Source of the DNA: Fibrobacteria bacterium
GTDB lineage: Bacteria > Fibrobacterota > Fibrobacteria > UBA11236
Length of the DNA stretch: 47,018 nucleotides
Direction of reading: 5' to 3'
NCBI GenBank assembly: GCA_050486505.1
Contig: JBJHDK010000012.1
Location: forward strand, 1-47,018
Shown here: positions 18,601-38,960 of the stretch, piece after piece
Layout: every line of letters starts with the position of its first letter
Position numbering within the stretch: the stretch's first letter is position 1
Made by a program: the position numbers and the translations under genes
Notes under the pieces: generated by a model
The model's database searches: none
Seen by the model: the letters and a program-made list of their open reading frames with translations, nothing else
Told to the model about the DNA's origin: nothing

Positions 18601-18724
18601 ACAGGCGTCTCCCGGGCTTCACGGCATACTCAACCGCTTCGGTTTGAGGGCGAAACGGTCGATACAGGGAAGCAACGTATGACGAAACAAGAGGTCAAGG
18701 TTCGGGAGAAGTCGTGTAAACGAC

Positions 18725-18806: not shown

Positions 18807-18821
18807 AGGGAGGATCTGAAT

Positions 18822-19906: not shown

Positions 19907-19998
19907 ACTTCGTAACATCCGCCACCCCCAGGACCAATGACGGACGTGGGAGCCGGCGGCAACCAACAGGTATGGAAATTCTCAAAGGAGTTAGACAC

Positions 19999-20526
19999 AT
20001 GGAAAAGACGCAAGACAAAAAAGTGTTCCCGATCGCATGGATCCGGGAAAAATTGTTCAAGAAGGCCGCCACACACGGTGACCAAAAGGGATTCACCCTC
20101 GTCGAGTTGCTGATGGTCATGCTCGTCATCAGCATCCTCGCCGGGATCGGCTTTTCGGGGATGAACGTGTTGCAGACCCGCACTCTCATCACCAAGGCCG
20201 ATACGTACTGGCGAGTGCTGGATGCGTCCGTCCAGATGTTCGCCGCGGAGGGTAACGCGGTTACCGGGGGCATGAGTATTGCGCCGCTTGGTCCCAATTA
20301 TATCGATTCTACGGAAGCACCGTGGCAAGCGACCATTGCAAATGATTCAACCGCCAACGTCTGGACAGGCAGCGCATGTGGCGACCCGGCAAATGCGAAC
20401 TACTTCGATGCCGGCAATCCTCGTCCGACGGTCGAGTCCGTGTACTACTGCATCGATGATGATGCCCGCGTCAGGGTTTGGGTTGCTGATTCAAGGCGCA
20501 CCGGTGCCGCCACGAACAACCCGTAA
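19999..20526 (+). CDS. pilA: Type IV pilin, probably the major pilin
   Basis: AGGAG SD; 'QKG|FTLVELL' class III signal, hydrophobic helix, two C-terminal Cys. Confidence 0.85.
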   Translation: MEKTQDKKVFPIAWIREKLFKKAATHGDQKGFTLVELLMVMLVISILAGIGFSGMNVLQTRTLITKADTYWRVLDASVQMFAAEGNAVTGGMSIAPLGPNYIDSTEAPWQATIANDSTANVWTGSACGDPANANYFDAGNPRPTVESVYYCIDDDARVRVWVADSRRTGAATNNP

Positions 20527-20634
20527 CGAAACCTCTGGTGATTCCGGATTCCGGCCCTTCATCGGGCCGGATAGCTGGATAGCCGGATAGCTGATTGCCG
20601 TTCGTGTACGGACGCCGCGGCAGGGGCGCAATTG

Positions 20635-20664
20635 GCAGGGGCGCACTTAACGGTGCGCCCCTGC
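20635..20664 (+). terminator. 12-bp GC-rich hairpin between pilin and pilB (partial terminator, stabiliser or REP-like)
   Basis: GCAGGGGCGCAC-TTAACG-GTGCGCCCCTGC; no U-tract. Confidence 0.5.
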
Positions 20665-20721
20665 TGCACCTCAAAAAACCCTGAGGTTCCTCAACCGGGT
20701 TCAAATTAGGGAGCGTGGTCA

Positions 20722-22752
20722 ATGGCGATCAAGCGTTTTAGCAATGTCCTCACCGATATGGGACTCGTGGACCGGGCTCAGGTCGACGAGGCTTTGGCGT
20801 TACGGAAGAAAACCGGTCGCCATCTGGGCGAGATCCTCATCCAACTCGGCTACCTGACCCAGGATCAAGTGGCGGATGCCCTCGCCGCCCACACGGGTGT
20901 CCCGCGGATCGACCTCGACGAAGTCACCATTGCGCCCGGGATCCGGGAGCTTGTCCCCGAGGAGTTGATCACACGGCACCGCGTCCTGCCTCTCGGGCTC
21001 GAGGGCGCTGCGCTCAAGGTCGCGATGGTCAACCCTTTTGACTTCGTCGCGCTCGACAGCGTAAGGGCGGCGACACGACTCGACGTGATCCCGACACTGA
21101 CGACCGAGGAACAGATCGCCAGGGCGTACGACCGCCACCGCCTAAAGGCTTCGGCCCAGCTCGTCGTGGAGGAACTGGGCTTTGAGGAGGAAGACGAAGA
21201 AGACCCCGGCATCCTCGATGACGTCGGAGAGTCATCCCGCGTCAAGGTCGTCAACATGATCATCGTCCAAGGCATCCGGGACCGGGCCTCCGACATTCAC
21301 ATCGAGCCGCAGGAGAATCAGATCCGCGTCCGCTACCGCATCGATGGCCACCTCCGGGATGTGATGGAGTTTCCAAAGCGCTTGCGCAACGAGATCGTCG
21401 CCCGGATCAAGGTGATGGCGGAACTTGACATCACGGAACGGCGACGACCCCAGGATGGTCGTTTGCGTGTGAGTTACGACGGCGCCTCCATCGATCTCCG
21501 GGTATCGTGCTTGCCGACCATTTACGGCGAAAAGGTCGTGCTCCGGGTGTTGAGCCGGACGGAAAATGCCGTCACGATCGATAATATGGGGTACCATCCC
21601 GTCAACCTGGCCGCGGTCAACAAAATGCTTTCCCGGTCCGAAGGGATCATCCTGGTGACGGGTCCCACCGGAAGCGGCAAGACCACGACCCTTTACTCCT
21701 TTTTGCAGCAACTCAATCAGACCAACCGCAACATCATCACAATCGAAGACCCCGTCGAGCTGCGCATGGGCGGGATCACGCAAATCAACGTGAACACCCG
21801 GGCGGGCATGACGTTTGCGTCGGCTCTCCGCTCGGTCCTGCGGCAGGATCCCGACATCGTCATGGTCGGCGAAATGCGCGATCATGAGACGGCCGAAATC
21901 GCGGTTCGAGCCGCACTCACCGGCCACCTCGTGCTGAGCACCCTTCACACCAACAACGCCGCCGCCACCTTGGGCCGTTTGATCGATATGGGGATCGAGC
22001 GCTTTCTCCTTTCCGACACGGTGATCGGGATCGTCGCGCAGCGGTTGGTGCGAAGCCTTTGTGCCAACTGCTCGGAGCCGGATCCGGAAGGGATGGAGGC
22101 CGTTGCGAATTGGCTTGCCGATGTCCCCAAGACGGCCAATATCAGGCGCGCGCGAGGCTGTACGGCCTGTGGCAACACGGGTTTTCGCGGCCGAATCGCC
22201 GTGGAGGAAGTCTTGTCTCTCAATGGCGAATTGCGGCGGATGATTCGAGGCGGCGAGTCGGAGAACGATATTGAAGAAGCTGCGGTCCGCACAGGCATGG
22301 TCCGGATGAAGGACGCCGCGCTGCAGCGGGTGGTGGACGGAAAGACCACCTTGGACGAGATTCGTGGCCTCCTGTCATCGGAGGAATCGTGCACTGCGGT
22401 CCTTCCCGGTACGCGTGAGATGCCGGCGGCCGAAAAGGAATCGGAAACGGAAGTCGTAACCGAACCGGACGAGGAACTGGCGAGCGACCAGAACCTACCG
22501 GAGTCGATCGCCCAACTGATCGCGGCTCTGTCGCGTCAAGGGGAAAACGCCGACGAGCAAGCTCATTCGGTTGCTGTCTCAGTCAACGGTCAACACGGCG
22601 CCAACGGCCAAATTGGGGCTTTCACCGCGCATTCAGGCCACTTTGCACCACAGGCGGCACAGGGGCATTTCGGTCAGCAGACGCCACCAACACCACTTCA
22701 GACACCATGGAAGAGACGGAGCATCGCCAATGGATTCCCTGGCACTTCTTGA
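20722..22752 (+). CDS. pilB: Type IV pilus assembly ATPase PilB/GspE family
   Basis: MshEN-like N terminus, 'ASDIHIEP', 'GPTGSGKTTT', 'TIEDPVE', 'LRQDPD', 'TGHLVLSTLH', CxxC...CxxC. Confidence 0.95.
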   Translation: MAIKRFSNVLTDMGLVDRAQVDEALALRKKTGRHLGEILIQLGYLTQDQVADALAAHTGVPRIDLDEVTIAPGIRELVPEELITRHRVLPLGLEGAALKVAMVNPFDFVALDSVRAATRLDVIPTLTTEEQIARAYDRHRLKASAQLVVEELGFEEEDEEDPGILDDVGESSRVKVVNMIIVQGIRDRASDIHIEPQENQIRVRYRIDGHLRDVMEFPKRLRNEIVARIKVMAELDITERRRPQDGRLRVSYDGASIDLRVSCLPTIYGEKVVLRVLSRTENAVTIDNMGYHPVNLAAVNKMLSRSEGIILVTGPTGSGKTTTLYSFLQQLNQTNRNIITIEDPVELRMGGITQINVNTRAGMTFASALRSVLRQDPDIVMVGEMRDHETAEIAVRAALTGHLVLSTLHTNNAAATLGRLIDMGIERFLLSDTVIGIVAQRLVRSLCANCSEPDPEGMEAVANWLADVPKTANIRRARGCTACGNTGFRGRIAVEEVLSLNGELRRMIRGGESENDIEEAAVRTGMVRMKDAALQRVVDGKTTLDEIRGLLSSEESCTAVLPGTREMPAAEKESETEVVTEPDEELASDQNLPESIAQLIAALSRQGENADEQAHSVAVSVNGQHGANGQIGAFTAHSGHFAPQAAQGHFGQQTPPTPLQTPWKRRSIANGFPGTS

Positions 22753-23758
22753 AAAAGTTGTCAAACTCGGTGCGTCGGACCTGCATCTCACCAACAAGAT
22801 CCCGCCGACCGTCCGCCTGCACGGACGCCTGCACCCACTCGAGGGGTACGAACCGATGACGCCGGAATCCATCGAACGTCTCGCCGAGGCGTTGACGACG
22901 CAGGAGCTTCGCCAACGGTTCGCGGAGGACGGCGAATTGGACTTCTCCTACGGCGCGGAGGGGGTCGGCCGCTTCCGCTGCAACCTTTTCCGGCAGCGCG
23001 GCTGCCTGGCGCTCGTCTTGCGCGTGATCAACACCGTGATCCCATCGTTTGAGGACCTTGGCCTCACGCCTGTCATTCGCAACATCTGCCAAAAAAAGGA
23101 CGGACTCGTGCTCGTGACGGGGCCGACCGGTAGCGGCAAGTCGACGACGCTTGCGGCGATGATCGACTGGATCAACCGGCACCGACCGGAAGTGATCATC
23201 ACGTTGGAAGACCCGGTCGAGTTTCTTCACGAGCACAAGCGAGGAATCGTCAACCAGCGAGAAGTCGGCAACGACACCAAAGGGTACGCCCTTGGCCTGC
23301 GAGCGGCGCTGCGCGAGGACCCCGACATCATCTTGGTCGGCGAGATGCGGGACCGCGAGACGATCGAGATCGCGCTCAAAGCGGCGGAGACCGGGCACTT
23401 GGTGTTCTCGACGCTTCACACACGAACCGCGGGCAGCACGGTCGACCGGATCATCGATACCTTCCCTCCTCACCAGCAGCCACAGATCCGGACCCAGCTC
23501 GCGGGATCGCTCCAGGCCGTCATTTCCCAGACGCTGGTGGTCCGGAGAGGTGGTAAGGGACGCGTGGCCGCGCGTGAGATCCTCGTGGCGACGCCGGCGG
23601 TGCGCAACCTCATGCGGGAGGGGAAGACGCACCAGATCAACTCGGTGATCGAAACGGGCGCTCGCCACGGGATGCAGACGATGGCGGCAGCTCTGGATGA
23701 ACTCCTAAATCGCGGCCTCATCGACAGAGAAGAGGTCGAGGCGCGCAAGAGCGCCTAG
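22730..23758 (+). CDS. pilT: Type IV pilus retraction ATPase
   Basis: 'ASDLHL', 'GPTGSGKSTT', 'ALREDPD', 'AVRNLMRE' (AIRNLIRE motif), 'GMQTM'. Confidence 0.95.
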   Translation: MDSLALLEKVVKLGASDLHLTNKIPPTVRLHGRLHPLEGYEPMTPESIERLAEALTTQELRQRFAEDGELDFSYGAEGVGRFRCNLFRQRGCLALVLRVINTVIPSFEDLGLTPVIRNICQKKDGLVLVTGPTGSGKSTTLAAMIDWINRHRPEVIITLEDPVEFLHEHKRGIVNQREVGNDTKGYALGLRAALREDPDIILVGEMRDRETIEIALKAAETGHLVFSTLHTRTAGSTVDRIIDTFPPHQQPQIRTQLAGSLQAVISQTLVVRRGGKGRVAAREILVATPAVRNLMREGKTHQINSVIETGARHGMQTMAAALDELLNRGLIDREEVEARKSA

Positions 23759-23769
23759 GGTGATGACCG

Positions 23770-24972
23770 GTGGCGACAGTCTATCAATACAGGGCGTGGG
23801 ATCGCTCCGGCAAGCTCGTCACGGGCACGATCCAAGCCGATCACCCCGACCGGATCTCGGAGCGGCTGCGGGCCGAAGGCTTTTTCCTTTCGTCGCTCAA
23901 GCCGGTCCGCGAGAAAAAACCGCTCTTTCAGCGAACCAAACGCCTGTCGGCGAAGACGCTGGCACTCTTTTGCCAGCAGTTTTCGATCATGATCAACACC
24001 GGTATGCCGATTGTCAGCTGCCTGCAGGCGCTCAGTGCGCAGATGCCGGACAAGCCCTCCAAAAAGGCCTTGGAGAGCGTCAGTCAGCATGTGGCGGCAG
24101 GCGAAGGGCTCGGCGAGAGCCTGGGAAGCCATCAAAAGATCTTTCCACGGCTCTTCATCGACATGATCGAGCTCGGCGAGGCCTCGGGCAACTTGCCGGA
24201 AATCCTCGATCGGTTGGCGAGTTATTACGAGAAAGATGCGAAGCTCAGAGGCGACGTGAAACAAGCGATGACGTACCCTGCCGTCGTCTCCGCATTTGCA
24301 GTCCTCGCAGTGGCGGTGGTTCTCTTTACGGTCATCCCGACGTTTGCCGACCTCTTTTCGGACTTCGGCGGAGACCTGCCCCTCATCACGCAGCTGGTCC
24401 TGTCGTTTCAAGCGGCAATCGCCGATAACATCGTGTACATGCTTTTGATAATCGTCTTGCTCTTTTTCGCCATTCAACGGTTTGGTCGCACCAAGCGGGG
24501 ACGATGGCAGCTCGATTCGATGATTCTGCGCTTGCCCGTGGCAGGGGACCTTGTTGTAAAAGTGCTTCTTTCCCGCTTTTGCCAGACCCTAAGCCTTCTC
24601 CTCAGCGGCGGCGTGACGGTGATGAGCGCCTTGGAATTCACTCGCAAGGTCGCCGGGAACGTCGTACTGGCGGCCGACATCGCCATGGCGCAGACCGGAG
24701 TCGCGAGCGGACAAGGGATCAGCGAGCCTCTGAGACAGGCTCGTGTCTTCCCCAAAATGCTCGTGGACATCATCGCGATCGGGGAAGAGACAGGGAGCAT
24801 CGAAAAGGTGCTCAGCCAGATCAGCGATTTCTATGACAAAGAAGTGGACCGCGCGGTCAAGAGCCTCACATCGGTGATTGAACCTGTCATTATCGCAGTG
24901 CTCGCAGGAGTGATCGGCATTATTGCGGCCGCTGTCTTTATGCCGATGTTTGAAATCGTCAACGTGGTGTAA
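23770..24972 (+). CDS. pilC: Type IV pilus platform protein PilC/GspF family
   Basis: Two T2SSF repeats ('GEASGNL', 'AMTYP', 'GEETGS', 'IEP'). Confidence 0.95.
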   Translation: MATVYQYRAWDRSGKLVTGTIQADHPDRISERLRAEGFFLSSLKPVREKKPLFQRTKRLSAKTLALFCQQFSIMINTGMPIVSCLQALSAQMPDKPSKKALESVSQHVAAGEGLGESLGSHQKIFPRLFIDMIELGEASGNLPEILDRLASYYEKDAKLRGDVKQAMTYPAVVSAFAVLAVAVVLFTVIPTFADLFSDFGGDLPLITQLVLSFQAAIADNIVYMLLIIVLLFFAIQRFGRTKRGRWQLDSMILRLPVAGDLVVKVLLSRFCQTLSLLLSGGVTVMSALEFTRKVAGNVVLAADIAMAQTGVASGQGISEPLRQARVFPKMLVDIIAIGEETGSIEKVLSQISDFYDKEVDRAVKSLTSVIEPVIIAVLAGVIGIIAAAVFMPMFEIVNVV

Positions 24973-24993
24973 GCGGAGAACGGGAAGGATGAC

Positions 24994-25971
24994 ATGGCCA
25001 ACGTCGCAGTAGGAATCGAAATCAACGGCCGCGCCATGCGCGTCGTTCAGGTGCGAAGGGGTCGCAGGGGCGACACGCTCGAAGGGGCGGCCATGGCGCT
25101 CTTTCCACCGGGCCTGGTCACCCCGGGCGGCGTGCAGGAACCGGAGGCGTTTCGAGAGATCGCCGTCGATGTCCTGGAGCGGGCAAACGCCGAGCGGATC
25201 AACCTCTGCATCTCCGTCAGCAGCGAGAGGGCGGACATTCGCCAGATGCAGCTCCCCCGGATGCCCGACCGCGATCTGCACCGGACCATCCGCAGGGAAT
25301 TGGAGCGATTGGTCCTCTATCAAGACGACTTTCTTTTCGACTATCAGGTGCTGCTCGAGGATACCGAGACCAAGCTGTGCGAGGTGCTGGTCGTCTCGCT
25401 GCCGAGAAATCTCGTCTACTCGATTGTGTCACCGCTCCAAAGCGCGGGTTACCACCCGGAGATCATCGACGTCGGCGGATTTTCCCTGCCGCTCGCGTGT
25501 CCCAGGGACGGCGGGACGGGGTATCTGTTGCTCGGCCCCGATCTGGTCCACATGCTCTTTTGTCAAGGGAGCGAGTACCGGTTGAGCCGACTGGTGTCGC
25601 TCCCGCTAACGGACTTGTTTGAAGACATCGATAAAGATGATTCGCTCGCCGCGACGTCCGAGGACGATGCGACGGAGAGAGAGCCGGCTTCCGCGGAAGG
25701 GATGCCGCACCCCGCCATTCGCACCCTGTGCTCCACCGTGACGCAGACGTTGGAGGGGGCCCAGGACATCAGCGACACGCAGGTACTGATCATCAGCGGG
25801 GAAGGCGCCCAGATCGAGGGGATGGCGACGTGGATCGAAGACGAAACGGGGATTCCGACCGTCCGGGCGAATCCGCTCATCGGGCCCGGCGAGGAGAACC
25901 ACATTGAGGAAGAAGGCGCCGCGTACGCCGTTGCCGTCGGCATGGCTCACCGAGGAGTGACCGAGCTGTGA
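24994..25971 (+). CDS. pilM: PilM-like actin-fold alignment protein
   Basis: 'VGIEING', 'FDYQVL', 'ISGEGAQIEG', 'AVAVGMA'; operon position. Confidence 0.85.
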   Translation: MANVAVGIEINGRAMRVVQVRRGRRGDTLEGAAMALFPPGLVTPGGVQEPEAFREIAVDVLERANAERINLCISVSSERADIRQMQLPRMPDRDLHRTIRRELERLVLYQDDFLFDYQVLLEDTETKLCEVLVVSLPRNLVYSIVSPLQSAGYHPEIIDVGGFSLPLACPRDGGTGYLLLGPDLVHMLFCQGSEYRLSRLVSLPLTDLFEDIDKDDSLAATSEDDATEREPASAEGMPHPAIRTLCSTVTQTLEGAQDISDTQVLIISGEGAQIEGMATWIEDETGIPTVRANPLIGPGEENHIEEEGAAYAVAVGMAHRGVTEL

Positions 25972-26525
25972 TCCGGATCAACCTGTTGCCAAAAGAGGAG
26001 CGCGGGAAAAGCGGCAGCCAAGTGAATTGGGCGCGGATGAACGTCTTTCTGTTGCTCGCCTCGATCTTTTTGATGTCGTTTTTCACCATGTTCAACTACA
26101 TGTTGCTCACCTCGTACCGGGAGCGCCTCGCCAACGTCCAACCGCAGATGGAGACGTTGCGCGCGGCTGAACGCGAGTTGCAGAGGCTCCGATCCACGAA
26201 TAACGAGATCCGGCAGAGCGTGCAGGTGGGCGAACAGCTCTTTGTCCGTTCGGCCAACGACAGCATCCTCGGCCTGATTCAACAGATCGCGCAGGTGACG
26301 CCTCCGGATATCTGGCTGCGACAGTTGCAGTTGAGCGCCGGAAACACTCTCGCCCTCAACGGATACGCCACCCAGGCGGCCGACATCTCGCTTTACCTGA
26401 GCGACCTGCAAAACGTGCGCGGCATTTCAAACATTCAGATCAACGCGCTGAGTCGCATCGGCGACGGTGCTCATGGGATCCGCGTGTTCGGCCTTCACAT
26501 CACGTTGCAACGGGGGGGTGGTTGA
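25968..26525 (+). CDS. pilN: PilN-like protein
   Basis: 'INLLP' PilM-binding motif, TM, coiled coil, 'PPDIWL'. Confidence 0.9.
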   Translation: MIRINLLPKEERGKSGSQVNWARMNVFLLLASIFLMSFFTMFNYMLLTSYRERLANVQPQMETLRAAERELQRLRSTNNEIRQSVQVGEQLFVRSANDSILGLIQQIAQVTPPDIWLRQLQLSAGNTLALNGYATQAADISLYLSDLQNVRGISNIQINALSRIGDGAHGIRVFGLHITLQRGGG

Positions 26526-26526
26526 G

Positions 26527-27441
26527 GTGAAACTCCCCGCGCTCATGCCTCTATTCCTGGGGCTTCCTCAGCGTCTGGATGCAGTTCTTCCCGAGCCCCT
26601 AAAGGGCAAGGGCCGACTGCTCATCATGACCCTCGGCCTTTTCCTGGTGGTGGCCGTCGTCGCCGCGATCAACTGGCGCCTGCATACGACACGGGTCGAT
26701 GTGCAGCGACAGGTCGAAACGCAAGAGCGGGCCGTCGCCCGGATTCCCGGGGTCCGCCAAAACATCAACGAGGAGCTTGAAACCGCCGAGCGGTTGGCGA
26801 GCGAACGAAATACGGTCTACGCAATGCTGCCGGGCCTGACCAACGTGCCTGTCATCGTCCACCAGCTGGAGGTATTGGGGCAAATGTCCGGGGGCAAAAC
26901 CAACCAGGTGGAGTACGCGCCCATGCAGCAGCGGCCTCCGCGGATCGACGTCCAGTTTCGGGTCCGGTTCAGCGGCGACTTCGGAGCTTGTTTGACGTAC
27001 TTGTACAACATCGTGGCGTCGTTTCCCACGATCGCCATCCGACAGGTCGTGGTCGAGCGCCCCGCGAACGAATCGGGCTTGTTATCCCTCAACTTCGAAC
27101 TCGTGCTCGCTGCGCTCGAGAGTCGGGCGAGCAACCTCCCCTCGTGGGATTTTGGGCGGTTGGTTGCGTTCCCGGTCACTCCCCTCGGGCGTCCATTTGA
27201 CGCTCCGGCTCAAGTTTGGAGGGACGGACTGAAGATCGGCGCAGTGCTCCCCGGTTGGACCTTAAAGGGCATCATGTACACCTCCGCCGAGCAGATGGCC
27301 CTCTTTGAAGTGAACGGACGGACGCAATGGCTAAAGGTCGGCGAAGAGATCGACGGCATCGAGCTGGTCAAGGTGACAGAGGGTGTTGTGCACCTCTGGT
27401 CGGCAGGGCGGACATTCACATTACGGTCAGAGGGGCGTTGA
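26527..27441 (+). CDS. pilO: PilO-like protein with C-terminal PilP/GspC-HR-like domain
   Basis: TM, coiled coil, 'LP...VP', 'FSGDF' ferredoxin-like part, then 'LKGIM...ALFEVNG...LKVGEEIDG'; start uncertain (26518-26545). Confidence 0.75.
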   Translation: MKLPALMPLFLGLPQRLDAVLPEPLKGKGRLLIMTLGLFLVVAVVAAINWRLHTTRVDVQRQVETQERAVARIPGVRQNINEELETAERLASERNTVYAMLPGLTNVPVIVHQLEVLGQMSGGKTNQVEYAPMQQRPPRIDVQFRVRFSGDFGACLTYLYNIVASFPTIAIRQVVVERPANESGLLSLNFELVLAALESRASNLPSWDFGRLVAFPVTPLGRPFDAPAQVWRDGLKIGAVLPGWTLKGIMYTSAEQMALFEVNGRTQWLKVGEEIDGIELVKVTEGVVHLWSAGRTFTLRSEGR

Positions 27442-27446
27442 GACCG

Positions 27447-29441
27447 ATGAAACGGAAATGGGTTGTGTGGGTGGCCGCCCTGCAGCTGATCATCCTCATG
27501 CAGGTGACCACGGCTGCCCAGAAATTGATCGACCTCGAATTCAACGGGGCTCGCGTCCAGGATGTCCTGCAGGTGCTGAGGCGGCTCGGAGATTTCAACA
27601 TCGTCGCCGATCCCCAAGTGACGGGCGAAGTGACCATCTTTCTGAAGCAAGTCACCGCGCGCGAGGCCGTAGGACTCGTCGCCCAGGCGGCAGGCTACAG
27701 TTACCGCTTCCAGGGCAATACCGTGCATATCGCGACCGAACAGCGCCTGGAGGCGCTTTTTTCCCCGTCGGCGCAGCCGGCGTCCGCGCCGGAGTACAAG
27801 GTGTACAACCTGCAAAGCGTCGACGCCGCGCAGGCCGTGGCCATGCTCTCGCGCATGTTGCCCGGGGTGAATGCGGTCGCCGACGACTCCCGCAATCTGC
27901 TCGTGCTGAGCGCGAGTTCCGATCAGCTCCGACGGGCGGAGGCGCTCCTCTTTGACTTTGACAGGCGGCAAGCTTCGTCGCGGCCGTTGCGAAACGTCGA
28001 CGTCATCAATCTCAATCACGCAGACCCGGAGCAGCTCGCGAACGTGATCCGCGCAATCGAACCCAATGCGACCGTGACAGTCGACGCATTTACCCGGAGC
28101 TTGGTCGTGCGTGGCTCGGACCGCACCATCGCATCCGTCCGCAGCATGATTCCTTTGTTGGACACCATCCAACGGCAGGTTCTGGTGGAAGCGCGCTTGG
28201 TGGAGATCTCGCTCGAAGCGCTCAACCGGTTGGGCCTTACGTGGGACCTCCCTTCTTTTGCGTTGTCGCTTGAGCGAGGAGCAAGTCTTTCCATCACGTC
28301 GGAAGAGTTGGGGATCGCTCTTGAAGCTCTAAGTACCGAGGGGAGCGCGCACATCCTCGCGAACCCCAAGATCGCGGCGGTCAACGCCACCACCGCAACC
28401 TTTTTGATCGGCGACCGGATCCCGATCATGATGCAGCAAGCCGACGACCTGGGGCGCGTGACGGGATTTCTCGAGTTCATCGAAGCCGGGATCAGCCTGG
28501 CAATTACGCCGATCATTGGGGACGACGGCTTTGTCACGCTGGAGCTCACAACCGGCGTGAGCGGTATTACGGGAATGACGCCGCAAAACATCCCCCAGAT
28601 ACGAACCCGCGAGGTCACCGCAACGGTGCGTGTGCAGGACGGACAACCGCTCGTAATCGGCGGACTGATCCAGGAGGAGGATCGCGTGACGGTCAGCGGG
28701 ATCCCGCTCCTGCAGAAGTTTCCCTTGATCGGCGAGCTGTTTCGGCGCAGACAAAGCCACAAAGTGCAATCAGAGACCGTCATCTTCCTCACGCCGCACA
28801 TCGTGACCGCCGCTCCCAAGAGAGCGTCGTCTGCGCCGGCGCAGCAGCCGGGAACGGACTCGCAGTCGCCCCAGGCCGCAGTTTCGTCCGAAGTGCAAAG
28901 GACGACGTCGGCCGGAGGCGATCAACGTACCACCCCGCCCGGTGGCGGATCCAGTAAAGAACCGACCGCGAGTCGGCCGGCTGCCTCGCCGCCTTCTGTT
29001 CACTCCAAAACGGGCGATCCGGTGGCGCCGGCGCGCACGTCGATCTCGCTCGACATCGGCTTGCTCGTCGCCCCTGACATCGGCTTGCCCGCCGCCCGTA
29101 CCGTCGATGTGGAACTCGAAAGCGGCGCCGCGACCAGGTTTTTGACGCGGTTTCACGTAACGCCGAGTGAAGACGACGTGACATGGGGATTCGGGCTCGG
29201 ACTGAGGCGATTTTTGGCCGGCACGCTATGGGCCGACATCGGAGGCGAGCATATCGTCGGCCCCGACTCCCAAGGAACCGCCTGGGCCGCGTCCGCCCAG
29301 CTCGGGATCCGCGTGCCGCTCGGCAAGCGGATCTATCTGGATCCGCATGCAGGCTATCGTCACGCCATCACGAGCGAGGAATCGGCCACGCTCTTTGGAC
29401 GCACGGAAGGGGTATACGGCAGTGTTCGGTTTGGTTGGTAA
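27447..29441 (+). CDS. pilQ: Secretin (PilQ/GspD family) with C-terminal extension
   Basis: Signal peptide, N0 and N domains, 'QVLVEARLVEI', 'VQDGQPLVIGGL', 'IPLLQKFPLIGELFR', 'VIFLTPHIV'. Confidence 0.9.
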   Translation: MKRKWVVWVAALQLIILMQVTTAAQKLIDLEFNGARVQDVLQVLRRLGDFNIVADPQVTGEVTIFLKQVTAREAVGLVAQAAGYSYRFQGNTVHIATEQRLEALFSPSAQPASAPEYKVYNLQSVDAAQAVAMLSRMLPGVNAVADDSRNLLVLSASSDQLRRAEALLFDFDRRQASSRPLRNVDVINLNHADPEQLANVIRAIEPNATVTVDAFTRSLVVRGSDRTIASVRSMIPLLDTIQRQVLVEARLVEISLEALNRLGLTWDLPSFALSLERGASLSITSEELGIALEALSTEGSAHILANPKIAAVNATTATFLIGDRIPIMMQQADDLGRVTGFLEFIEAGISLAITPIIGDDGFVTLELTTGVSGITGMTPQNIPQIRTREVTATVRVQDGQPLVIGGLIQEEDRVTVSGIPLLQKFPLIGELFRRRQSHKVQSETVIFLTPHIVTAAPKRASSAPAQQPGTDSQSPQAAVSSEVQRTTSAGGDQRTTPPGGGSSKEPTASRPAASPPSVHSKTGDPVAPARTSISLDIGLLVAPDIGLPAARTVDVELESGAATRFLTRFHVTPSEDDVTWGFGLGLRRFLAGTLWADIGGEHIVGPDSQGTAWAASAQLGIRVPLGKRIYLDPHAGYRHAITSEESATLFGRTEGVYGSVRFGW

Positions 29442-29823
29442 AGATCAATCGGGATTCTCCCTTGTCGAAACGATCGCCGTCATGCTGCTGCTTCTCGTTT
29501 TCACGGTAGGCGTTTCGGCAGTGATCCGCTCGTCGGATCACCTGTTTCGCCGCGGCAAGCAGGAGGAGCAGATCCGGCAGTCTCTGATCGCCGCGGCCGA
29601 GACGATCAAGGTAGAGATGCGGTTTACGAAGGTTCCCGGAGGTTGCGGTGCAGGGGGCGGAGATTTCCCCGTCAACGGGACATACTGGGCGACGTACACA
29701 TGCAGCGGCAACCAAGAAGGTCTTTCCATGCTGTACAAGTTTGACGTCCGCCTCCACGAGGACTCCCCTGCCGGCGTCGAAGTGGGCGAGCTCATGTTTT
29801 ACGCGACAAGGGGGGGGTACTGA
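29422..29823 (+). CDS. Minor pilin
   Basis: 'QSG|FSLVETI' prepilin motif; start uncertain (GTG 29422 or TTG 29431). Confidence 0.78.
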   Translation: MFGLVGKDQSGFSLVETIAVMLLLLVFTVGVSAVIRSSDHLFRRGKQEEQIRQSLIAAAETIKVEMRFTKVPGGCGAGGGDFPVNGTYWATYTCSGNQEGLSMLYKFDVRLHEDSPAGVEVGELMFYATRGGY

Positions 29824-30992
29824 TGAACCGGTTGGACCCTGCCGAGCGGGGAATGGCGCTCGTTTGGGTGATCTCCCTGATGACCCTGATCCTGATGCTT
29901 GTGGGCGGACTCCTGTCTCTCGCGCCCGTCGCTTTTCGTCAGGCTCGCTTTGACGGGGAGCTCGCCTCGGCCCTCGTCGTCGCCGAATCCGGGTTGAACC
30001 ACGGCCTTGCCCGAATGGATAATGTCCTCGCGTCGGGGGGAACGCTGGCGGATTGGGTGTCGCCGAGCGGGTACGTCCTGACGGGAGGGGATCCCGACGT
30101 CAGCGGGAGTTACACCACCACGATCACCCACCATCCGACAATCGGCGGCGCCTTTTTGGTGGAGGCGGAGGGCTATTTCAACGATCGCAGACGAACCGTG
30201 AATCTGATGGTGGGCGAGGCCTTTCCCGTCTTTCGGGGAAAACTCCAATCGACCGATCCCTCGAGCCCGTATTACGATCCTGCGTTTTTCTGGGTGGACG
30301 TGAGCGTGCCCGGTTGGTCGCAAGGAACGGTCAGCGAGTGCTCGCCGGTCACGATCGACGGCATCCCCACGCTGTTGAGCGTGACCTGCCAATACAGCAA
30401 TCACTTCACCCTCACCAACAGTCAAAAGCTGTTGATCAAAAACTCGACAGTCCGCTTCGCCGGCAATGCGACATTTAACGGCGATCTCTTTATGGAGAAC
30501 TCCGACATTTACGTTGACGGTTCGGTCACCTTTCGCGGCAAGGCGGCAATGACCGGTTCCAACAACGGCTACGTTCAGGGGTACATCGCCGTGCAAGCCC
30601 CCGCGAAGGTTCACGGAGACGGGATGAACATCAACTACTTCTACGTGAAGGGGAGCCTCTCATTCTCCGGCAACGTCACGATCGGGTCGTGGGGCACGAC
30701 GCCTCCGTTTTCCGACATCGTCTTCCTCGGCGGAACGAGCACGGAAGTCTTTGTGGATCCACCGAGTTCGATTGATGGCTCGGCGGTCAAGTGCGCCTGC
30801 GGGATCTACACACCGACGCGAGATGTAAAATTCAACGGCGCGCAGTTTCAGGTCTACGGTTCGATCGTCGGGGTTGAGTTCGAGTTTTCCGGGGGCAGCC
30901 ATGAAAACATCGATTACGGGATCGAGCTGCGAGACGTGGCGATCCCGGGAGCTCTCAAGGTCGGGACGCGCAACTGGAACGAGGTCCGGTGA
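29823..30992 (+). CDS. PilX/GspK-like large minor pilin with beta-rich C-terminal domain
   Basis: 'ERG|MALVWV' (no Glu5), 'ALVVAESGL', C-terminal 'VYGSIVG'. Confidence 0.8.
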   Translation: MNRLDPAERGMALVWVISLMTLILMLVGGLLSLAPVAFRQARFDGELASALVVAESGLNHGLARMDNVLASGGTLADWVSPSGYVLTGGDPDVSGSYTTTITHHPTIGGAFLVEAEGYFNDRRRTVNLMVGEAFPVFRGKLQSTDPSSPYYDPAFFWVDVSVPGWSQGTVSECSPVTIDGIPTLLSVTCQYSNHFTLTNSQKLLIKNSTVRFAGNATFNGDLFMENSDIYVDGSVTFRGKAAMTGSNNGYVQGYIAVQAPAKVHGDGMNINYFYVKGSLSFSGNVTIGSWGTTPPFSDIVFLGGTSTEVFVDPPSSIDGSAVKCACGIYTPTRDVKFNGAQFQVYGSIVGVEFEFSGGSHENIDYGIELRDVAIPGALKVGTRNWNEVR

Positions 30993-30995
30993 TCA

Positions 30996-31550
30996 ATGAG
31001 TGCCATTTGCTCGCAACGCGGGTACACGCTCGTCGAGTTGCTCTTTAACCTCGTGATCATCGGCATCATCTGCTCCCTTGCCCTCCTTTTGTTTTTTTGG
31101 GGTTACGGACATGGACGCCGGGGTATGGACGAGTTTGCCATGAACACCGATCTGCGCGGCGTTTTGCGCGAGATCGCCGTCGGATATGCCCAAGGATCCG
31201 ACGACCGGAAGAAGGGGCTGGCGGGCTCGGAAAAGGTGGCATTCGCCGCGGGCGTCCTCTCGTACAAGGGCGAACTGACCGAAACCTCCTTCGTCACATA
31301 CACCTGGGAGACGGCAGGGAGCGGGTCGCTCGTTCGCCGGGTGGTGGCCGACGGCGGCGCCGTCCTCCACGGTCCGGACACCCTCCTGGAGGATGTCGAC
31401 CATTTTTCGGTTTGCGTCAACGACCGCGTCTTTATGGTTCGCATCTCGCAGCAGACCACGGACGACCGTCCCCGCCAAACCGACATGACGCGCAACATCT
31501 ACGGTCGCAATGCGCGCGCGACCAGCCTGACGGTGCCGGACTGCCCCTAG
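30996..31550 (+). CDS. Minor pilin (PilW/GspJ-like)
   Basis: 'QRG|YTLVELL' prepilin motif. Confidence 0.82.
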   Translation: MSAICSQRGYTLVELLFNLVIIGIICSLALLLFFWGYGHGRRGMDEFAMNTDLRGVLREIAVGYAQGSDDRKKGLAGSEKVAFAAGVLSYKGELTETSFVTYTWETAGSGSLVRRVVADGGAVLHGPDTLLEDVDHFSVCVNDRVFMVRISQQTTDDRPRQTDMTRNIYGRNARATSLTVPDCP

Positions 31551-31584
31551 ACGGTCGGGGCCGGCACGCGCTCGATGCCGATCG

Positions 31585-31602
31585 CTTCGCCGGGGTGACG
31601 AA
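31585..31602. repeat. Half of a GTCACCCCGGCG-type palindromic repeat
   Basis: CGCCGGGGTGACGAA (31588-31602) is the exact reverse complement of 32393-32407. Confidence 0.6.
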
Positions 31603-31635
31603 TAGAGCTACACTCGCAGAACCTTCTCCATCACC

Positions 31636-32190
31636 CTACTTGGGCACGTACCGCAGCGCCACGGATCCCGAGGGGAACTCTCGCGTGCCGACGAGTTTCA
31701 AATCCACGAACTTCGAGAGTCCGGCGAACAGGTAGGGGCCGTGTCCCGCGATGCGGGGGTGCACGAGGAACTCGTACTCGTCGATCAGGCCCAGTTCGGC
31801 CAATGCCAACGGAAGCGTGAGGCCCCCCAACCCGATTCCCTCCCCCGGTTCACTTTTAATCCGCCTTACGGCTTCCGCCAAATCCCCCCGCAAAAGTTCC
31901 GAGTTCCAATCGACCTGTTCAAGCGTACTCGATACGACGTATTTCTTTTTCGCGTCAATCGTTTCGGCGAACGGGATCATCCACGCGTCCATCCAGTCGG
32001 GCCAAGGCCCTGTCTCCGGCTTCCGCCACGCGCCTTCCATCATTTCGTAGGTGGTGCGGCCCAGAAGCAGCGAACCGGCCCGGGCGATGTTTTCGGTTGC
32101 GAATCGATGCGTGTCTTCGTTTACAATGCCGGCCATGTGGTCGCAGCATCCGTCGAGGGTGACGTTGATGGAATAGCGGAGAGGTTGCAT
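31636..32190 (-). CDS. Dihydrofolate reductase/RibD C-terminal family protein
   Basis: 'INVTLDGCCDH', 'GRTTYEMM', 'LIDEYEFLVHP', 'GHGPYLF'. Confidence 0.9.
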   Translation of the reverse strand: MQPLRYSINVTLDGCCDHMAGIVNEDTHRFATENIARAGSLLLGRTTYEMMEGAWRKPETGPWPDWMDAWMIPFAETIDAKKKYVVSSTLEQVDWNSELLRGDLAEAVRRIKSEPGEGIGLGGLTLPLALAELGLIDEYEFLVHPRIAGHGPYLFAGLSKFVDLKLVGTREFPSGSVALRYVPK

Positions 32191-32392
32191 GGTTCACTTT
32201 CCTTTCTTCTGAAGACGTACCAACAATTAGTCGGGTTGGGTGAATCGTTTGGTCATGAGAACATTGAACAGGTTTTTGTGGGGGGCTCTGTGGTATTTCG
32301 TGATTTGTTGGGGGAAGGGATCGATAAAGCAGGGGTCAGAAAGCACGCTTCAAGTGACCAGGCGCGGGCTAAACTCCGGTGGGGCTTGTTTC

Positions 32393-32422
32393 TTCGTCAC
32401 CCCGGCGCAGGCCGGGGGCCAG
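32393..32422. repeat. GTCACCCCGGCGCAGGCCGGGG palindromic repeat unit
   Basis: Related units at about 40569-40590 and about 42928-42949. Confidence 0.62.
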
Positions 32423-34141
32423 TCAGGAGTCAGGTGCCGACATAGAGGTTTGCTGCGGTCGATGTTTCTTCGGCGAAAAGACGCGGGACGCCCATTCGAC
32501 GACATTGCCCGGGGTTACCCCATCGCAGTAATCGCAACAATGGACTGTCGACTGAGCACGCGTCTTGCGTTCGAATAGCCATCTCACGATTCGCACGGAG
32601 ATCGATAGCCCGGCCGCTGATGATTTCTCGCCGAAATAGCGTACGATCAGCTCTCGAGCGCAAGAGCTTTTTGCCATCGCCTGCCTTTGCATCTGGACAA
32701 TCCCCTTATACCGTGCCTGGAGTGCCCCTTCCCGGGCAGCCGCGGAATCGGCGACGTTCAGCGCCGTCTTCTCGGCCATGTATCGAAGAAGTCTTTCGTC
32801 CTTTGGGTCCGTGAAAAGAACTGCAACGGAAGGCTTGCCATCGCGTCCAGCGCGCCCAAACTCTTGCAAGTAGTCTTCCACAGACGCCGGATGCTGCCAG
32901 TGTACAACCAAACGCACGTCTGGAACATCCAGGCCCATTCCGAAAGCGTTTGTGCAAATCACGACATTTACAGGTGGCGAAATCCGGCCCAGGAATCTCC
33001 CGAGAAGCATGTCCCGCTCGTTCGCGGAGCCGAGCTGTGAGTGGTAGAATGGCACGTCACGGCCATGATCCTTGAGTCCGGCGCGAAGCTGCCTGCCCGT
33101 TCGCACGGTGGGCACGAAGAGCATCGCGCGCCCAGTAGGCAGCGTATTCAGAAGATCAGCAATCAAGCGGTAGCGATTCAGGTCGTCAACCTTCTGGAGC
33201 CGAGCCAAGGCAATGTTGGGACGATTGACTCCCGTGACAATGACCCGCGCCTTCGGTACCCCGAGGGAGTAAAGAATTCGTCTTTGGCTTTCAACGCCTG
33301 CGGTCGCGGTGAACGCCAGTACCGGAGGTTCTCCAAGCATCTTTCTCACGTGTCCGAGCCTATCGTAGTTCGGGCGAAAGTCCTTTCCCCAACGATCGAT
33401 GCAATGCGCTTCATCGATGACGAGGTAACTCGGGCGTATGCGCTTGATCTCCTCCACTTCGGCTTGCCTCACCAAGTTGGAATCAAACCTCTCTGGCGTG
33501 CAGTAGAGGAACTTGTAGACCCCGTCGTGGAGGAGCTTGTATCTGAGCCTCTTCTCCCGCGGACTCAGATCGCCGTTGATAAATGTTCCGGGAATCTGCT
33601 TGCCTTGAAGGGAGGATACCTGTTGGCTCATCAAGGCCTTCAGCGGCGAAATGACCATTCCAACACGGTGGCCCAGAAGAATGGGCAGTTGGAAGCAGAG
33701 AGACTTTCCGGATCCGGTAGCGCTCACGAGCAGAAGAGATTCGCCCCGAAGCGCGGCCAGTACGACCTCAAGCTGAGGATGCCTGAACCGGCTGGCGCCC
33801 AACAGCCGAAGCCCGGCCCCCAAGGTTTCATCGATGTTGTCGAGTTCTTTCTGCCGGTCGAGCCAATGTGCCAGCCGCAGGCCCCAGCGCTCGAGCATGC
33901 GCCGGGAGAGCGAGGCTTGCAGGTTCGGGTGCCGCGCGGCATGGCATCCGTCGCACAGCGTGATCAGGTTGCTAGGGTCATCGAGACCACCGGCTGAGCG
34001 GGGGATAAGATGGTGGATGTCAGCTTCACCGGCTTCGGGTACGATGCCGCACGATACGCAAGTATTCTGGTCTCGGGCGAGTACAGCATCTCGGATTTCA
34101 GGCCATCGTCTGGAAGTTGCGTCGATTGGCGTGGCGGTCAT
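32423..34141 (-). CDS. HNH endonuclease-RecQ-family helicase fusion
   Basis: N-terminal 'CVSC...HHLIPRSAGG...NLITLCDGCH'; 'ATGSGKS', 'DEAHCIDRWGKDFRP', 'TATA', 'AFGMGLD', 'QEFGRAGRDG', Cys cluster. Confidence 0.9.
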   Translation of the reverse strand: MTATPIDATSRRWPEIRDAVLARDQNTCVSCGIVPEAGEADIHHLIPRSAGGLDDPSNLITLCDGCHAARHPNLQASLSRRMLERWGLRLAHWLDRQKELDNIDETLGAGLRLLGASRFRHPQLEVVLAALRGESLLLVSATGSGKSLCFQLPILLGHRVGMVISPLKALMSQQVSSLQGKQIPGTFINGDLSPREKRLRYKLLHDGVYKFLYCTPERFDSNLVRQAEVEEIKRIRPSYLVIDEAHCIDRWGKDFRPNYDRLGHVRKMLGEPPVLAFTATAGVESQRRILYSLGVPKARVIVTGVNRPNIALARLQKVDDLNRYRLIADLLNTLPTGRAMLFVPTVRTGRQLRAGLKDHGRDVPFYHSQLGSANERDMLLGRFLGRISPPVNVVICTNAFGMGLDVPDVRLVVHWQHPASVEDYLQEFGRAGRDGKPSVAVLFTDPKDERLLRYMAEKTALNVADSAAAREGALQARYKGIVQMQRQAMAKSSCARELIVRYFGEKSSAAGLSISVRIVRWLFERKTRAQSTVHCCDYCDGVTPGNVVEWASRVFSPKKHRPQQTSMSAPDS

Positions 34142-34204
34142 TTTTCAGTGCGATTGATTAACAAGTGATAGTCAAAGTGGATGTCATGTTAATGCCAGAG
34201 ATGA

Positions 34205-34256
34205 GTTTCCGGTCGAAGACTTCGGCGGCCCCAGCGATGACATCGGGGCTTTACTG
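34205..34256 (-). ncRNA. Candidate structured RNA downstream of DUF3800 gene
   Basis: Minus strand AAAGCCCCGAUGUCAUCGCUGGGGC-CGCCGAAGUCUUCGACCGGAAAC, two adjacent hairpins. Confidence 0.35.
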
Positions 34257-34325
34257 CTATGAGGCATTGACGTGAGAGAGTGGGTTTGGCCACGGGGGAC
34301 GTATGAGGCGTATACTGTACTGATC

Positions 34326-35498
34326 TCATAGAAGGGTGAGCTGTGAGTGCGCATCATTGATTTCATCGCATTGTCTTAAACTCTTCCAGCGTGGATCGGC
34401 CAACAGGTCTACGCCCAAGATAGTGTGCACATGAACGGTCATCATAGAGGCCTTATGCATCATGGGTTCAACTTTTTCTGTCATATTCTTGAAGTACTCT
34501 TCGATCTCAGACAGATTCACCGGAAGCTTATACCCTCCCTTTCTATTTGATACAATCAAAACGTCGTTGGTTCGAAGCTTCCCGATTACTTTCGTCCTGA
34601 AGTAATAATCTCCAACCTCTACCATCCTACTCTGACTTAATCGTTCACGCAGGTATTTTGTCCTGACGTAGAGATGAGGGTCACCATTCAAAATTTCATC
34701 GAGTAGCTCTCTGGCCAAGTGAACCTGGTCTTTTTTCAAAGGCTCCTCGGATTCTTCGTACTTCTCAATAAACACTTTCGCAAAGTTAACGGATGCTCTC
34801 AGCAGTGGCTCACTAATTTTAGCCGAAACCGCTACGTCAGAAAAGTCAAAGTTCCGCAGCGAAAATGGCCAAGCCTTAATTTTTACCAAATCAGAGACAT
34901 AATTAAAATTATGAGTTCCATCTCTGAGATCACGGAAAAGCGTGCCTGAGCAGAAGTCAGCTAATTGGTTAAGTCGAGATCCCTTGGACTCACGGAACTC
35001 AATGTTTGAGGTGTTAAAAAGATTTAAAGGCGCACGGTCAACAAAATATGCCATCAATGATTTTTGAAAATCTGCGTCCCCAATCGGATCCGGATAAATA
35101 ACGGCTGTGTCATGTGCTGCAATCAAATAATTGAATAACTGCCTCGGAACCCGCTTGTAAAATGTCCGCTTCCATTTGAACTTATCTGGTCCAAGCAAAG
35201 CTTTGTCGACTTTAAGGATTACACCTCTCCAAAGATTCCGAGGTAGTTCTTCTAGGATTTTTCGACGGAGGTTATCATCGGATATATTCTTTGACTTAAT
35301 TTGCCCGCCGTTTAAGCGCATTCTAGCAAGAGCGTCCAAGCTCGCATTTAGCTTGCCAACATTTTGGGCCTCAACAATTACAGCGCAAATCAAAAACCAA
35401 GGCTCGCTTTTCCCATCCTCAAAGTTTAATCCGTTGTCGCCCGTCTCATCTATGAAGATTTCAATCATGATATTATTCCATCGATCCTGATTACTCAC
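34326..35498 (-). CDS. DUF3800-domain protein with C-terminal wHTH-like extension
   Basis: 'IFIDETGD' and 'LNQLADFCSG' motifs; AT-rich codons; start GTG 35498 or ATG 35468. Confidence 0.82.
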   Translation of the reverse strand: MSNQDRWNNIMIEIFIDETGDNGLNFEDGKSEPWFLICAVIVEAQNVGKLNASLDALARMRLNGGQIKSKNISDDNLRRKILEELPRNLWRGVILKVDKALLGPDKFKWKRTFYKRVPRQLFNYLIAAHDTAVIYPDPIGDADFQKSLMAYFVDRAPLNLFNTSNIEFRESKGSRLNQLADFCSGTLFRDLRDGTHNFNYVSDLVKIKAWPFSLRNFDFSDVAVSAKISEPLLRASVNFAKVFIEKYEESEEPLKKDQVHLARELLDEILNGDPHLYVRTKYLRERLSQSRMVEVGDYYFRTKVIGKLRTNDVLIVSNRKGGYKLPVNLSEIEEYFKNMTEKVEPMMHKASMMTVHVHTILGVDLLADPRWKSLRQCDEINDAHSQLTLL

Positions 35499-35563
35499 CC
35501 CATGTCAGAATTAGGCCGCACAACAGAGCGAATGCCGCCTGATCGAATAAATTGATCCGTTCC

Positions 35564-36286
35564 TCACGTGATGGCACTAAGCGCAGCAATTAGTTCAGGG
35601 CCAATGTCCTTAACGAAAGCTACTTGGGCTTCAGAAACAGGCTCGCCGTGAAGGGCCGGAGAGCAGACCGAGTAAACTTCTCGGATAGCATTTGCTAGCC
35701 GAGGTTCAAGCAATTCTGCTTGGACCAATGCTCGGGTGAGCTGCATGGCGGGCATCGGGCGACGGATTTCCCCAACAAGCTGGCGCGACTCTCCAATTCG
35801 GCGGAGCTCCTTTTCCATATTGTAGCGAGTAGCGAACAAAAGTGCTACCTCTGACGGAACGGGAATCTGTGCGGGCGGAGGCGACTCCTTAATTCCGAGC
35901 TCTACTAGCGCATTCGATACCACTGATTTAATACGCCGTTCAATCTCAGGAAGTTGCGCATCGGCGACTGGAGCTGGAATTGTGAAGTGCGGGCTGAAGG
36001 TTGTCCGTACGTCAACTGCATTTCTGACCTCACTCTTTACATCTGTAAATTGGTCTGCAAGAAATCCCTTAAGCTCGTCCACTCGTTGTTTGAAGGTGAT
36101 GCCAAGTAGTGACACTTCGCTAAACAGAGGGGCAAGCAAAAGCGCTACCCAAACAATAAACACCACGATATCGGCAGGTACGGCGTGGCCCACAGTAAGT
36201 TCTGGATAGCGGTGGGCAAGAAATATTGTAAGGAGGACTACAAGTAGTAGCCACCAGGCGACCTTAATCCAGTTAGGTAATATCAA
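35564..36286 (-). CDS. Two-TM protein with C-terminal helical, HEPN-like domain
   Basis: Two N-terminal hydrophobic helices; 'MEKELRRI...AIREVYSVCSPALHG'; TTG start after G-run. Confidence 0.7.
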   Translation of the reverse strand: MILPNWIKVAWWLLLVVLLTIFLAHRYPELTVGHAVPADIVVFIVWVALLLAPLFSEVSLLGITFKQRVDELKGFLADQFTDVKSEVRNAVDVRTTFSPHFTIPAPVADAQLPEIERRIKSVVSNALVELGIKESPPPAQIPVPSEVALLFATRYNMEKELRRIGESRQLVGEIRRPMPAMQLTRALVQAELLEPRLANAIREVYSVCSPALHGEPVSEAQVAFVKDIGPELIAALSAIT

Positions 36287-36374
36287 AGCCCCCCCAATTC
36301 TTGTCGAAGCAGCCGAAGCCGAGACATTGAGTGCCGCGTGTTCCTGAGCTCTGCGTGGCTAGCCCAAAGGTGCC

Positions 36375-37538: not shown

Positions 37539-37765
37539 TCTTCCTCCGAGTGAGAATTGCCTCTGCCAAGCAGCCAGCGCTACCGACTGAATGCGTGTTG
37601 TATTCCACTATCGAGTTCCAGTATAACCCCCGCTACGTATCACGTAAACCTCGTCACACTCCGCCTACGGGGAACCTCGGACCTGCACTCCCCCACCCCA
37701 AAAACAAAGAGGGCCCCGTAGAGCCCCATTCCTTTCCAAAAAGCGCAATCGATGTCAAGCGGCAC

Positions 37766-37794
37766 CCATATATCGCGAAGATATATGGAGTCAA
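37766..37794 (-). promoter_or_regulatory. Putative promoter/operator upstream of the defence genes
   Basis: TTGACT directly followed by perfect inverted repeat CCATATATC-n5-GATATATGG. Confidence 0.45.
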
Positions 37795-37810
37795 ATGACT
37801 TCTATTCCCC

Positions 37811-38947: not shown

Positions 38948-38960
38948 TTCGTCGGACTCC

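Follow-up and report, generated by a model that had tools for sequence, protein, structure and literature searches.

We analysed a stretch of 47,018 nucleotides (nt) from a member of the Fibrobacteria (assembly GCA_050486505.1, contig JBJHDK010000012.1, positions 1 to 47,018 of the forward strand), hereafter called the window. It holds a type IV pilus-like locus whose secretin gene encodes more than a secretin: past the pore domain come a low-complexity linker and then a C-terminal domain, modelled as a small outer-membrane β-barrel, which may serve as a built-in anchor in the outer membrane. Features and their positions are collected in Table 1.

Table 1. Secretin gene, domains of its product, and surrounding features in the window.
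Feature	Positions	Strand	Remarks
Secretin gene	27447..29441	+	664 amino acids (aa) plus stop; N-terminus signal-peptide-like, without cysteine
STN / N0 domain	27594..27725	+	residues 50-93; Pfam PF07660, 28.8 bits (cut-off 28.4)
Secretin_N ring domain	27798..27974	+	residues 118-176; Pfam PF03958, 76.9 bits, 2 stretches
Secretin pore domain	28326..28805	+	residues 294-453; Pfam PF00263, 148.2 bits (cut-off 27.5)
P/S/T/A/Q-rich low-complexity linker	28806..29036	+	length and sequence differ among relatives (19-113 aa)
C-terminal 134-aa domain, modelled as an 8-stranded OmpA-like outer-membrane barrel	29037..29438	+	ends ...VRFGW
First of three downstream prepilin-like genes	29431..29823	+	TTG start; overlaps the secretin end by 11 nt
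Type IV pilus-like locus	18792..31550	+	LuxR-type regulator, prepilin peptidase, pilin, PilB, PilT, PilC, PilM, PilN, PilO-like, secretin, three minor pilins
Stretch without counterpart in same-genus genomes	15700..39200		about 23 kb; pilus locus and defence-like genes; boundaries approximate

The secretin is read from a single uninterrupted open reading frame (ORF; 27327..29441, + strand). An in-frame ATG lies upstream at 27327, and the start at 27447, common to the three closest orthologs, gives the protein of 664 residues. This protein begins with MKRKW followed by a hydrophobic stretch, as a signal peptide does, and no lipobox cysteine of the kind that marks the liposecretins HxcQ and BfpB was found, the first 30 residues of P0001, P0002 and P0003 being devoid of Cys. 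All features of the secretin superfamily that we tested are present: the pore domain, N0/STN and ring domains, a signal peptide, and a type IV filament machine encoded alongside. The scores remained below the cut-offs of the PilQ model TIGR02515 (200.3 bits vs 284.35) and of the GspD model TIGR02517 (217 bits vs 351.35), and no AMIN domain was found in the secretin by the Pfam scan.

Position 28806 is the first after the Pfam Secretin domain, and the interval 28806-29441 is everything beyond it. An earlier reading of the letters alone (the sequence-only reading) had described there a linker of about 75 aa and a domain of about 135 aa; we measured 73 aa for the linker (residues 457-529, 79% P/S/T/A/Q/G/E) and 134 aa for the domain. 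The strand-rich part occupies the last 134-135 aa, ends in ...GSVRFGW and is closed by a TAA stop at 29439-29441. The next gene, starting with the TTG at 29431, encodes a prepilin leader (MVGKDQSG, then FSLVE). As the secretin end overlaps this gene, the tail lies inside a tightly packed operon, with no spacer.

Such a tail might in principle come from a lost stop codon, or from an assembly error that appended a following gene or non-coding DNA to the secretin. Several lines of evidence leave practically no room for this. In-frame fusion of the tail is seen in at least 20 distinct secretins, which come from several assemblies. Across the interval 28806-29441, contigs of two sequencing runs (X1 and X2) show no indel, the sole letter changes being two substitutions in X2, which speaks against the lost stop codon for which the sequence-only reading had suggested a check. 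The overlap with the next gene argues in the same direction. Using the tail alone, phmmer returned 9 matches at E <= 0.001, including the query, among 1.84 billion representatives. In-frame tails of other secretins were thus recovered at E 9e-55 to 7.5e-5, among them those of three distant secretins of 681-703 aa, matched at their C-terminus with 29-34% identity (E 1.5e-5 to 7.5e-5). Three further matches are short proteins of 105-154 aa, 67-77% identical to the tail (P0004-P0006). They could pass for stand-alone genes, and are most likely fragments, because they sit on contigs of only 818-1116 bp.

A search with the tail region of the whole protein in a collection of 5.8 billion clusters gave 3 matches among 5188 candidates, one being the query and the two others further secretins, 54-56% identical over 100% of the region. 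Secretin family domains are present in 7/7 long database proteins matching the tail profile. No stand-alone copy of the tail was found by profile search in frames of at least 70 aa from 153 loci (1.44 Mb) and from the whole genome carrying the window. Separate encoding of the tail in relatives, which would have pointed to read-through, was not encountered: every match lies inside a secretin frame. Discarded as chance were P0009 and P0010, which are repeat proteins without a secretin domain, and marginal matches in non-secretin frames of G123 and G284/L123. The P0008 tail, used as a query, matched only itself. A read-through artefact is excluded.

Comparison of the window protein with its four closest orthologs showed that the three parts of the protein are conserved to different degrees. 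Identity is 82-85% over the secretin part, with 0 gap columns, 63-74% over the barrel, with 8-10 gap columns, and 38-63% over the linker, with 40-68 gap columns. Judged from these alignments, the figures are those expected of a folded domain held by a disordered tether. In one ortholog, P0002, 66 residues are missing (about 111-176 relative to P0001), spanning one Secretin_N ring domain; its linker and barrel are kept.

We then considered the fold of the tail. An AlphaFold2 model, built on an alignment of 8 tail sequences, consists of eight strands that follow one another in a simple up-down arrangement (residues 2-9, 21-29, 33-43, 48-61, 64-74, 81-91, 99-112 and 124-133 of the tail), forming a closed antiparallel barrel with both termini on one side. 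Its mean predicted local distance difference test score (pLDDT) is 79.7 and its predicted template modelling score (pTM) 0.71; confidence is low in two loops only (pLDDT <50 at residues 13-18 and 115-117). Foldseek found nothing in the PDB at E <= 0.001, its best rows being the OprF N-domain (E 4.6e-3, template modelling score 0.67), a designed transmembrane barrel, OmpA and NspA. Among 48,161 representative chains, the best rows of VIA-align 2 were PagL (13.5), OprH (13.3), OmpW (12.8) and CarO (12.6). The barrel of about 8 strands anticipated by the sequence-only reading is therefore what the model gives, with outer-membrane barrels as its closest structural matches, and not the soluble or disordered tail that would have spoken against it.

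At the sequence level the tail reaches no Pfam family (Autotransporter beta-domain, 19.4 bits vs 26; OMP_b-brl, PF13505, 14 vs 28.7). Sub-threshold matches occur in 1/11 members for OMP_b-brl and in 2/11 for Autotransporter (PF03797). The tail profile had no significant match to PDB sequences (best E 0.24). Language-model look-alikes of the window tail and of the divergent G287 tail fall in small porin-like, OMP_b-brl, PagL and DUF3575 clusters, which we take as leads only. According to the model, the tail is an OmpA-like barrel by fold, not by sequence, and we treat it as an unnamed domain family.

The two faces of the strands were compared by laying the alignment columns on the DSSP strands of the model, so that inner and outer faces are read indirectly, not from coordinates. 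One face is made of 61% L/V/A/I/F and is variable; the opposite face contains 21% Gly and 12% Arg, together with Glu, Asp, Ser and Tyr. Mean hydropathy of the alternating faces is +1.49 vs -1.09. The polar face is the more conserved (mean column entropy 1.30 vs 1.83, Mann-Whitney p 0.006) and carries the invariant residues R38, G53, G55, R57, W65 and G90. A small barrel embedded in lipid has a conserved, polar, Gly-rich face and a variable hydrophobic one, and a soluble barrel the reverse. The distribution observed is thus that of a lipid-embedded small barrel. A soluble periplasmic barrel of eight strands, similar to avidin, YceI or lipocalins and binding a ligand or the cell wall, would agree with the strand number and be at odds with this distribution and with the structural matches; we consider it improbable.

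Another possibility is that the barrel has a surface job of its own, exerted through its loops or lumen, as a small channel, a receptor, or a binder of substrates connected with the pilus (DNA, for example), in which case the secretin would only position it beside the pore. Some structural neighbours, namely NspA, OprH, OmpW, CarO and PagL, do have such roles. In the model, however, the loops are short, and they are the least conserved or least confident parts (those with pLDDT <50 given above); the conserved residues are on the inward face of the strands and not in loops, and no catalytic or binding family was matched. We therefore give this possibility little credence.

The C-terminal strand of the tail points to a delivery route. 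A C-terminal strand with a terminal aromatic residue is the signal recognised by the β-barrel assembly machinery (BAM). Such an ending, W, Y or F, is present in 15/17 distinct tails, those lacking it being P0007 (a truncated variant of P0012) and L004.

To see how widespread the tail is, two conserved secretin motifs were searched in one genome per species, giving 76 secretin loci. The four best are from metagenome-assembled genomes titled Limnochordia or Clostridia; in three, the match extends to residue 664, and in the remaining one the tail is divergent. None of the remaining 72/76 loci has the tail. With the tail profile, 10/95 genomes were positive in the class that holds the Limnochordia genome G208 (11 at E <= 0.01, one being false), all ten matches being C-terminal portions of secretin frames; PF00263 detected a secretin in 78/95 genomes of this class. 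An even sample of the phylum of G208 yielded 2/401 genomes, both of the Limnochordia class. Within the window's own class only 1/208 genomes was positive, which is the window's genome itself, one other match being due to chance, and the tail is absent from all 20 secretin loci of the window's own family. The counts for the class and the phylum of G208, like that of the long database proteins above, come from word-limited profile searches, and the full-library tail scan was made with a single sequence. Secretins with like tails, whose taxonomy the sequence-only reading had wished to see, are thus found mainly in Limnochordia. In 5/10 tail-bearing genomes the tailed secretin is the sole secretin.

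Other C-terminal extensions were noticed on the way. Nitrospira secretins (L031-L071, e.g. L044 of N. moscoviensis) carry one of about 190-205 aa, and the Halanaerobiaceae secretin L006 an acidic one of 212 aa; the barrel profile matched neither. In the tail-less sister clade described below, one Limnochordia secretin (L145:372-788, - strand, genome G247) has a strand-rich extension of 139 aa ending in ...RIGIRLVK. With an hhalign probability of 0.75%, this extension has no detectable kinship to the barrel family and was left out of the counts; it might be a tail of separate origin or one that has diverged strongly.

A tree of 125 secretin domains, from which the tail columns had been left out, places the window secretin with P0002 and P0003 (support 100), inside a group of 12 tail-bearing secretins (87). 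These 12 sit in turn inside a group of 27 rows (support 95), of which 23 are genome-assigned and all of the Limnochordia class, the other four rows being three metagenome proteins and the secretin of the window. Secretins of the window's own family, 18 in number, cluster apart from these (support 100); one of their rows, L104, is from the unpublished genome G172, which also entered one genome count and on which no result depends. Two gains or losses of the tail are needed on this tree. Nested beside the tail-bearers is a clade of 11 secretins without a tail. On this phylogeny, the tail module belongs to a secretin clade of the Limnochordia, which are two-membraned Bacillota. The PilC protein of the locus behaves in the same way: it is 59%, 48% and 47% identical to the PilC of three tail-bearing Limnochordia genomes vs 40% to the same-genus copies.

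We next compared the window with genomes of the same genus. Its left 16 kb have matches in 11/11 of them (64-89% DNA identity), and the right flank has matches in all five tested. In the pilus locus (18-32 kb), matches were limited to short pieces of paralogous ATPases in 2/11 genomes and a 100-nt piece in a third. The two flanks are about 3 kb apart in G190 vs about 23.6 kb in the window. Because the secretin and PilC group with Limnochordia, and the stretch is missing from 11/11 same-genus genomes, the pilus locus was probably acquired by cross-phylum transfer, with Limnochordia as the source.

A mis-binned contig was considered and rejected: composition is ordinary (GC content 0.611; tetranucleotide distance rank 27 of 71), and the two flanks have counterparts in same-genus genomes. 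Depth is even over flank and island in run X1, from which the assembly may derive, and the independent run X2, from a close strain, covers parts of the flank as well as of the locus at 2-4x depth. The island junctions (e.g. 16228/16343) are bridged by no listed Logan contig, so that contiguity of the island rests on the assembly, on the even X1 depth and on the X2 pieces. No tRNA gene was found in the window and no integrase family among the ORFs scanned.

Upstream of the secretin, the locus encodes PilD, the pilin, PilB, PilT (474.5 bits vs cut-off 319.1), PilC, PilM, PilN and a PilO-like protein, and three prepilins are encoded downstream. PilB (20722-22752) has an N-terminal cyclic-di-GMP-binding domain of the MshEN type, and since it scores above cut-off (52.5 bits vs 38), the pilus is probably controlled by cyclic-di-GMP. 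In Limnochordia loci an extra gene lies directly before the secretin (L002 9215-10633, L003 8423-9658, L005 9458-10669, L004 9971-11107); its product of about 380-410 aa has, by eye, an N0-like start and no pore domain. The window is without this gene, and a 324-aa PilO-like protein (26467-27441) directly precedes the secretin.

Defence-like genes adjoin the pilus locus (32423-39043, - strand), encoding an HNH-helicase matching DpdF (575 bits), a DUF3800 protein and a SoFic-type Fic protein; a TIR-effector match lies in the defence-like protein at 36375-37538. GC content is only 47-49% across 34-37.5 kb. Outside the island, a repeat of about 35 nt follows the fumarase gene (window 6024-6066) and recurs on many contigs of this genome and of congeners, at 92-100% identity.

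What could such a barrel do for a secretin? From the fusion, its conservation, the predicted fold and the pattern of its strand faces, we infer insertion of the barrel into the membrane, use of BAM, and a role in targeting or anchoring. The proposal that we favour, at a probability of about 0.55, is that the barrel of each subunit, once inserted by BAM, tethers the secretin at the outer membrane and is a covalent stand-in for the lipoprotein pilotin. BAM would recognise the barrel and insert it via its C-terminal strand (...G-h-R-h-G-W, with the terminal aromatic). The secretin chain would then be tethered under the outer membrane, by the very end of the protein at which other secretins bind their lipoprotein pilotin, and subunits would be concentrated at the correct membrane for ring assembly. 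After assembly, a ring of small barrels would stay around the pore as permanent anchors. Both ends of an eight-stranded barrel are periplasmic; one that follows the secretin domain would hence lie in the membrane next to the pore, at the site of the pilotin lipids.

As to the machinery required, Omp85 genes were found in the window's own genome and in 5/5 tail-bearing Limnochordia genomes tested. LolA, a component of lipoprotein localisation (Lol), was undetected in 4/5 of the latter and scored 23.8 bits in the fifth, vs a cut-off of 23.6, in a test that is insensitive (the control missed Bacteroides). In the literature, PMC5007114 describes Negativicutes without LolA and LolB, and Halanaerobiales with LolA. 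Among the genes of the locus, no pilotin family was found, and no S-domain was detected in the secretin, the segment after residue 456 being the linker. Pilotins of type IV pili are usually encoded outside pilus operons, and for this reason the absence of one from the locus says little.

Several observations weigh against the anchoring proposal. The fold model rests on only 8 sequences and its best Foldseek match has an E value of 4.6e-3; the tail reaches no sequence family cut-off; and the face analysis presupposes the DSSP strands of the model. One subclade (L004, P0016 and P0017) ends in ...GVRN, with no terminal aromatic. Limnochordia secretins can as a rule do without the tail: it exists in only 10 of the 78 secretin-holding Limnochordia genomes (95 searched), and the sister clade of 11 secretins lacks it. 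LolA is detected in the present host (41 bits), which leaves lipoprotein pilotins possible. Finally, many secretins insert without BAM, as stated in PMC3230066 and PMC4604470, and their dependence on BAM varies according to the former. The sequence-only reading had proposed a built-in anchor that replaces the pilotin. Its anchor half is favoured by fold and sequence pattern; the replacement half stays conjectural, with the position of the tail at the S-domain end and the LolA results for it, and the small share of tailed secretins and the host LolA against it.

Alternatively, the barrel could be embedded in the membrane and play no part in targeting. It would act only once the ring is assembled, stabilising or spacing it so that it stays fixed in an unusual outer membrane, or offering a contact point to other envelope proteins. 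The fold evidence is the same as for an anchor, and the present data do not separate the two. Many secretins of this class have no tail, which shows that targeting is achievable without one, and a linker varying from 19 to 113 aa suits a loose tether. Against this alternative, no conserved partner gene was seen beside the tail-bearing secretins in the loci compared. On balance we find this alternative unlikely, though more plausible than a surface job or a soluble barrel.

The anchoring proposal can be placed among the known routes of secretin targeting, which use separate lipoprotein pilotins, inner-membrane accessory proteins, or a lipid on the secretin itself. In type II secretion, as described in PMC6532946, monomers travel to the outer membrane via Lol with a lipoprotein pilotin bound to their C-terminal S-domain; the proposed purpose is to concentrate monomers under this membrane for multimerisation and insertion. 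As in PulS-PulD, AspS/GspS-GspD and EpsS-EpsD (PMC6532946), the tailed secretin has an anchoring element at its C-terminal end, just after the secretin domain, and the proposed role is alike, namely to bring monomers to the outer membrane and hold them there. The nature of the element differs: type II pilotins are separate lipoproteins delivered by Lol and bound non-covalently to a helical S-domain, whereas the tailed secretin would have a fused, lipid-free β-barrel, presumably delivered by BAM.

Nearly all secretins need helpers, the exception stated in PMC12475490 being HxcQ of Pseudomonas aeruginosa, which has its own lipid. Like the tailed secretin as proposed here, this liposecretin has its own outer-membrane targeting element and no separate pilotin (PMC12475490). 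HxcQ relies on an N-terminal lipobox and lipid and is Lol-dependent, whereas the tailed secretin has no signal-peptide cysteine and a C-terminal barrel. With the eight-stranded barrels of OmpA/OprF (N-terminal; PDB 1bxw/1qjp, 4rlc), OmpX, NspA, PagL, OmpW and TtoA, there is no detectable sequence kinship. In OmpA/OprF the barrel is N-terminal and joined to a peptidoglycan-binding domain, and in the tailed secretin it is C-terminal and joined to a multimeric pore. Autotransporters (type V secretion) resemble the tailed secretin in their C-terminal barrel with a terminal aromatic; they have 12 strands and export a passenger, whereas here there are 8, and the secretin is a membrane protein staying on the periplasmic side.

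Taken further, the tail might represent a third, lipoprotein-free route for secretins, in which a covalent BAM substrate takes the place of the pilotin, evolved in the apparently Lol-less Limnochordia. As the barrel route needs only the universal BAM machine, it would also make the pilus locus portable between phyla, its arrival in a Fibrobacterota genome being the example at hand. This wider scheme is tentative.

It has long been asked how secretins reach and enter the outer membrane. In the literature searched, which leaves out most subscription journals, no secretin fused to a β-barrel was found. The present finding adds an unnamed domain family, and offers a case of probable cross-phylum transfer of a complete pilus locus. 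If the proposal is true, a natural secretin with a BAM-type barrel at its pilotin-binding end would make a clean test system, with or without the barrel and with or without BamA, and, being self-contained, could serve in the laboratory to move pilus or secretion machines from host to host. A hint would also be gained on how pilus pores are placed in the two-membraned Bacillota, which possibly have no outer-membrane lipoprotein transport.

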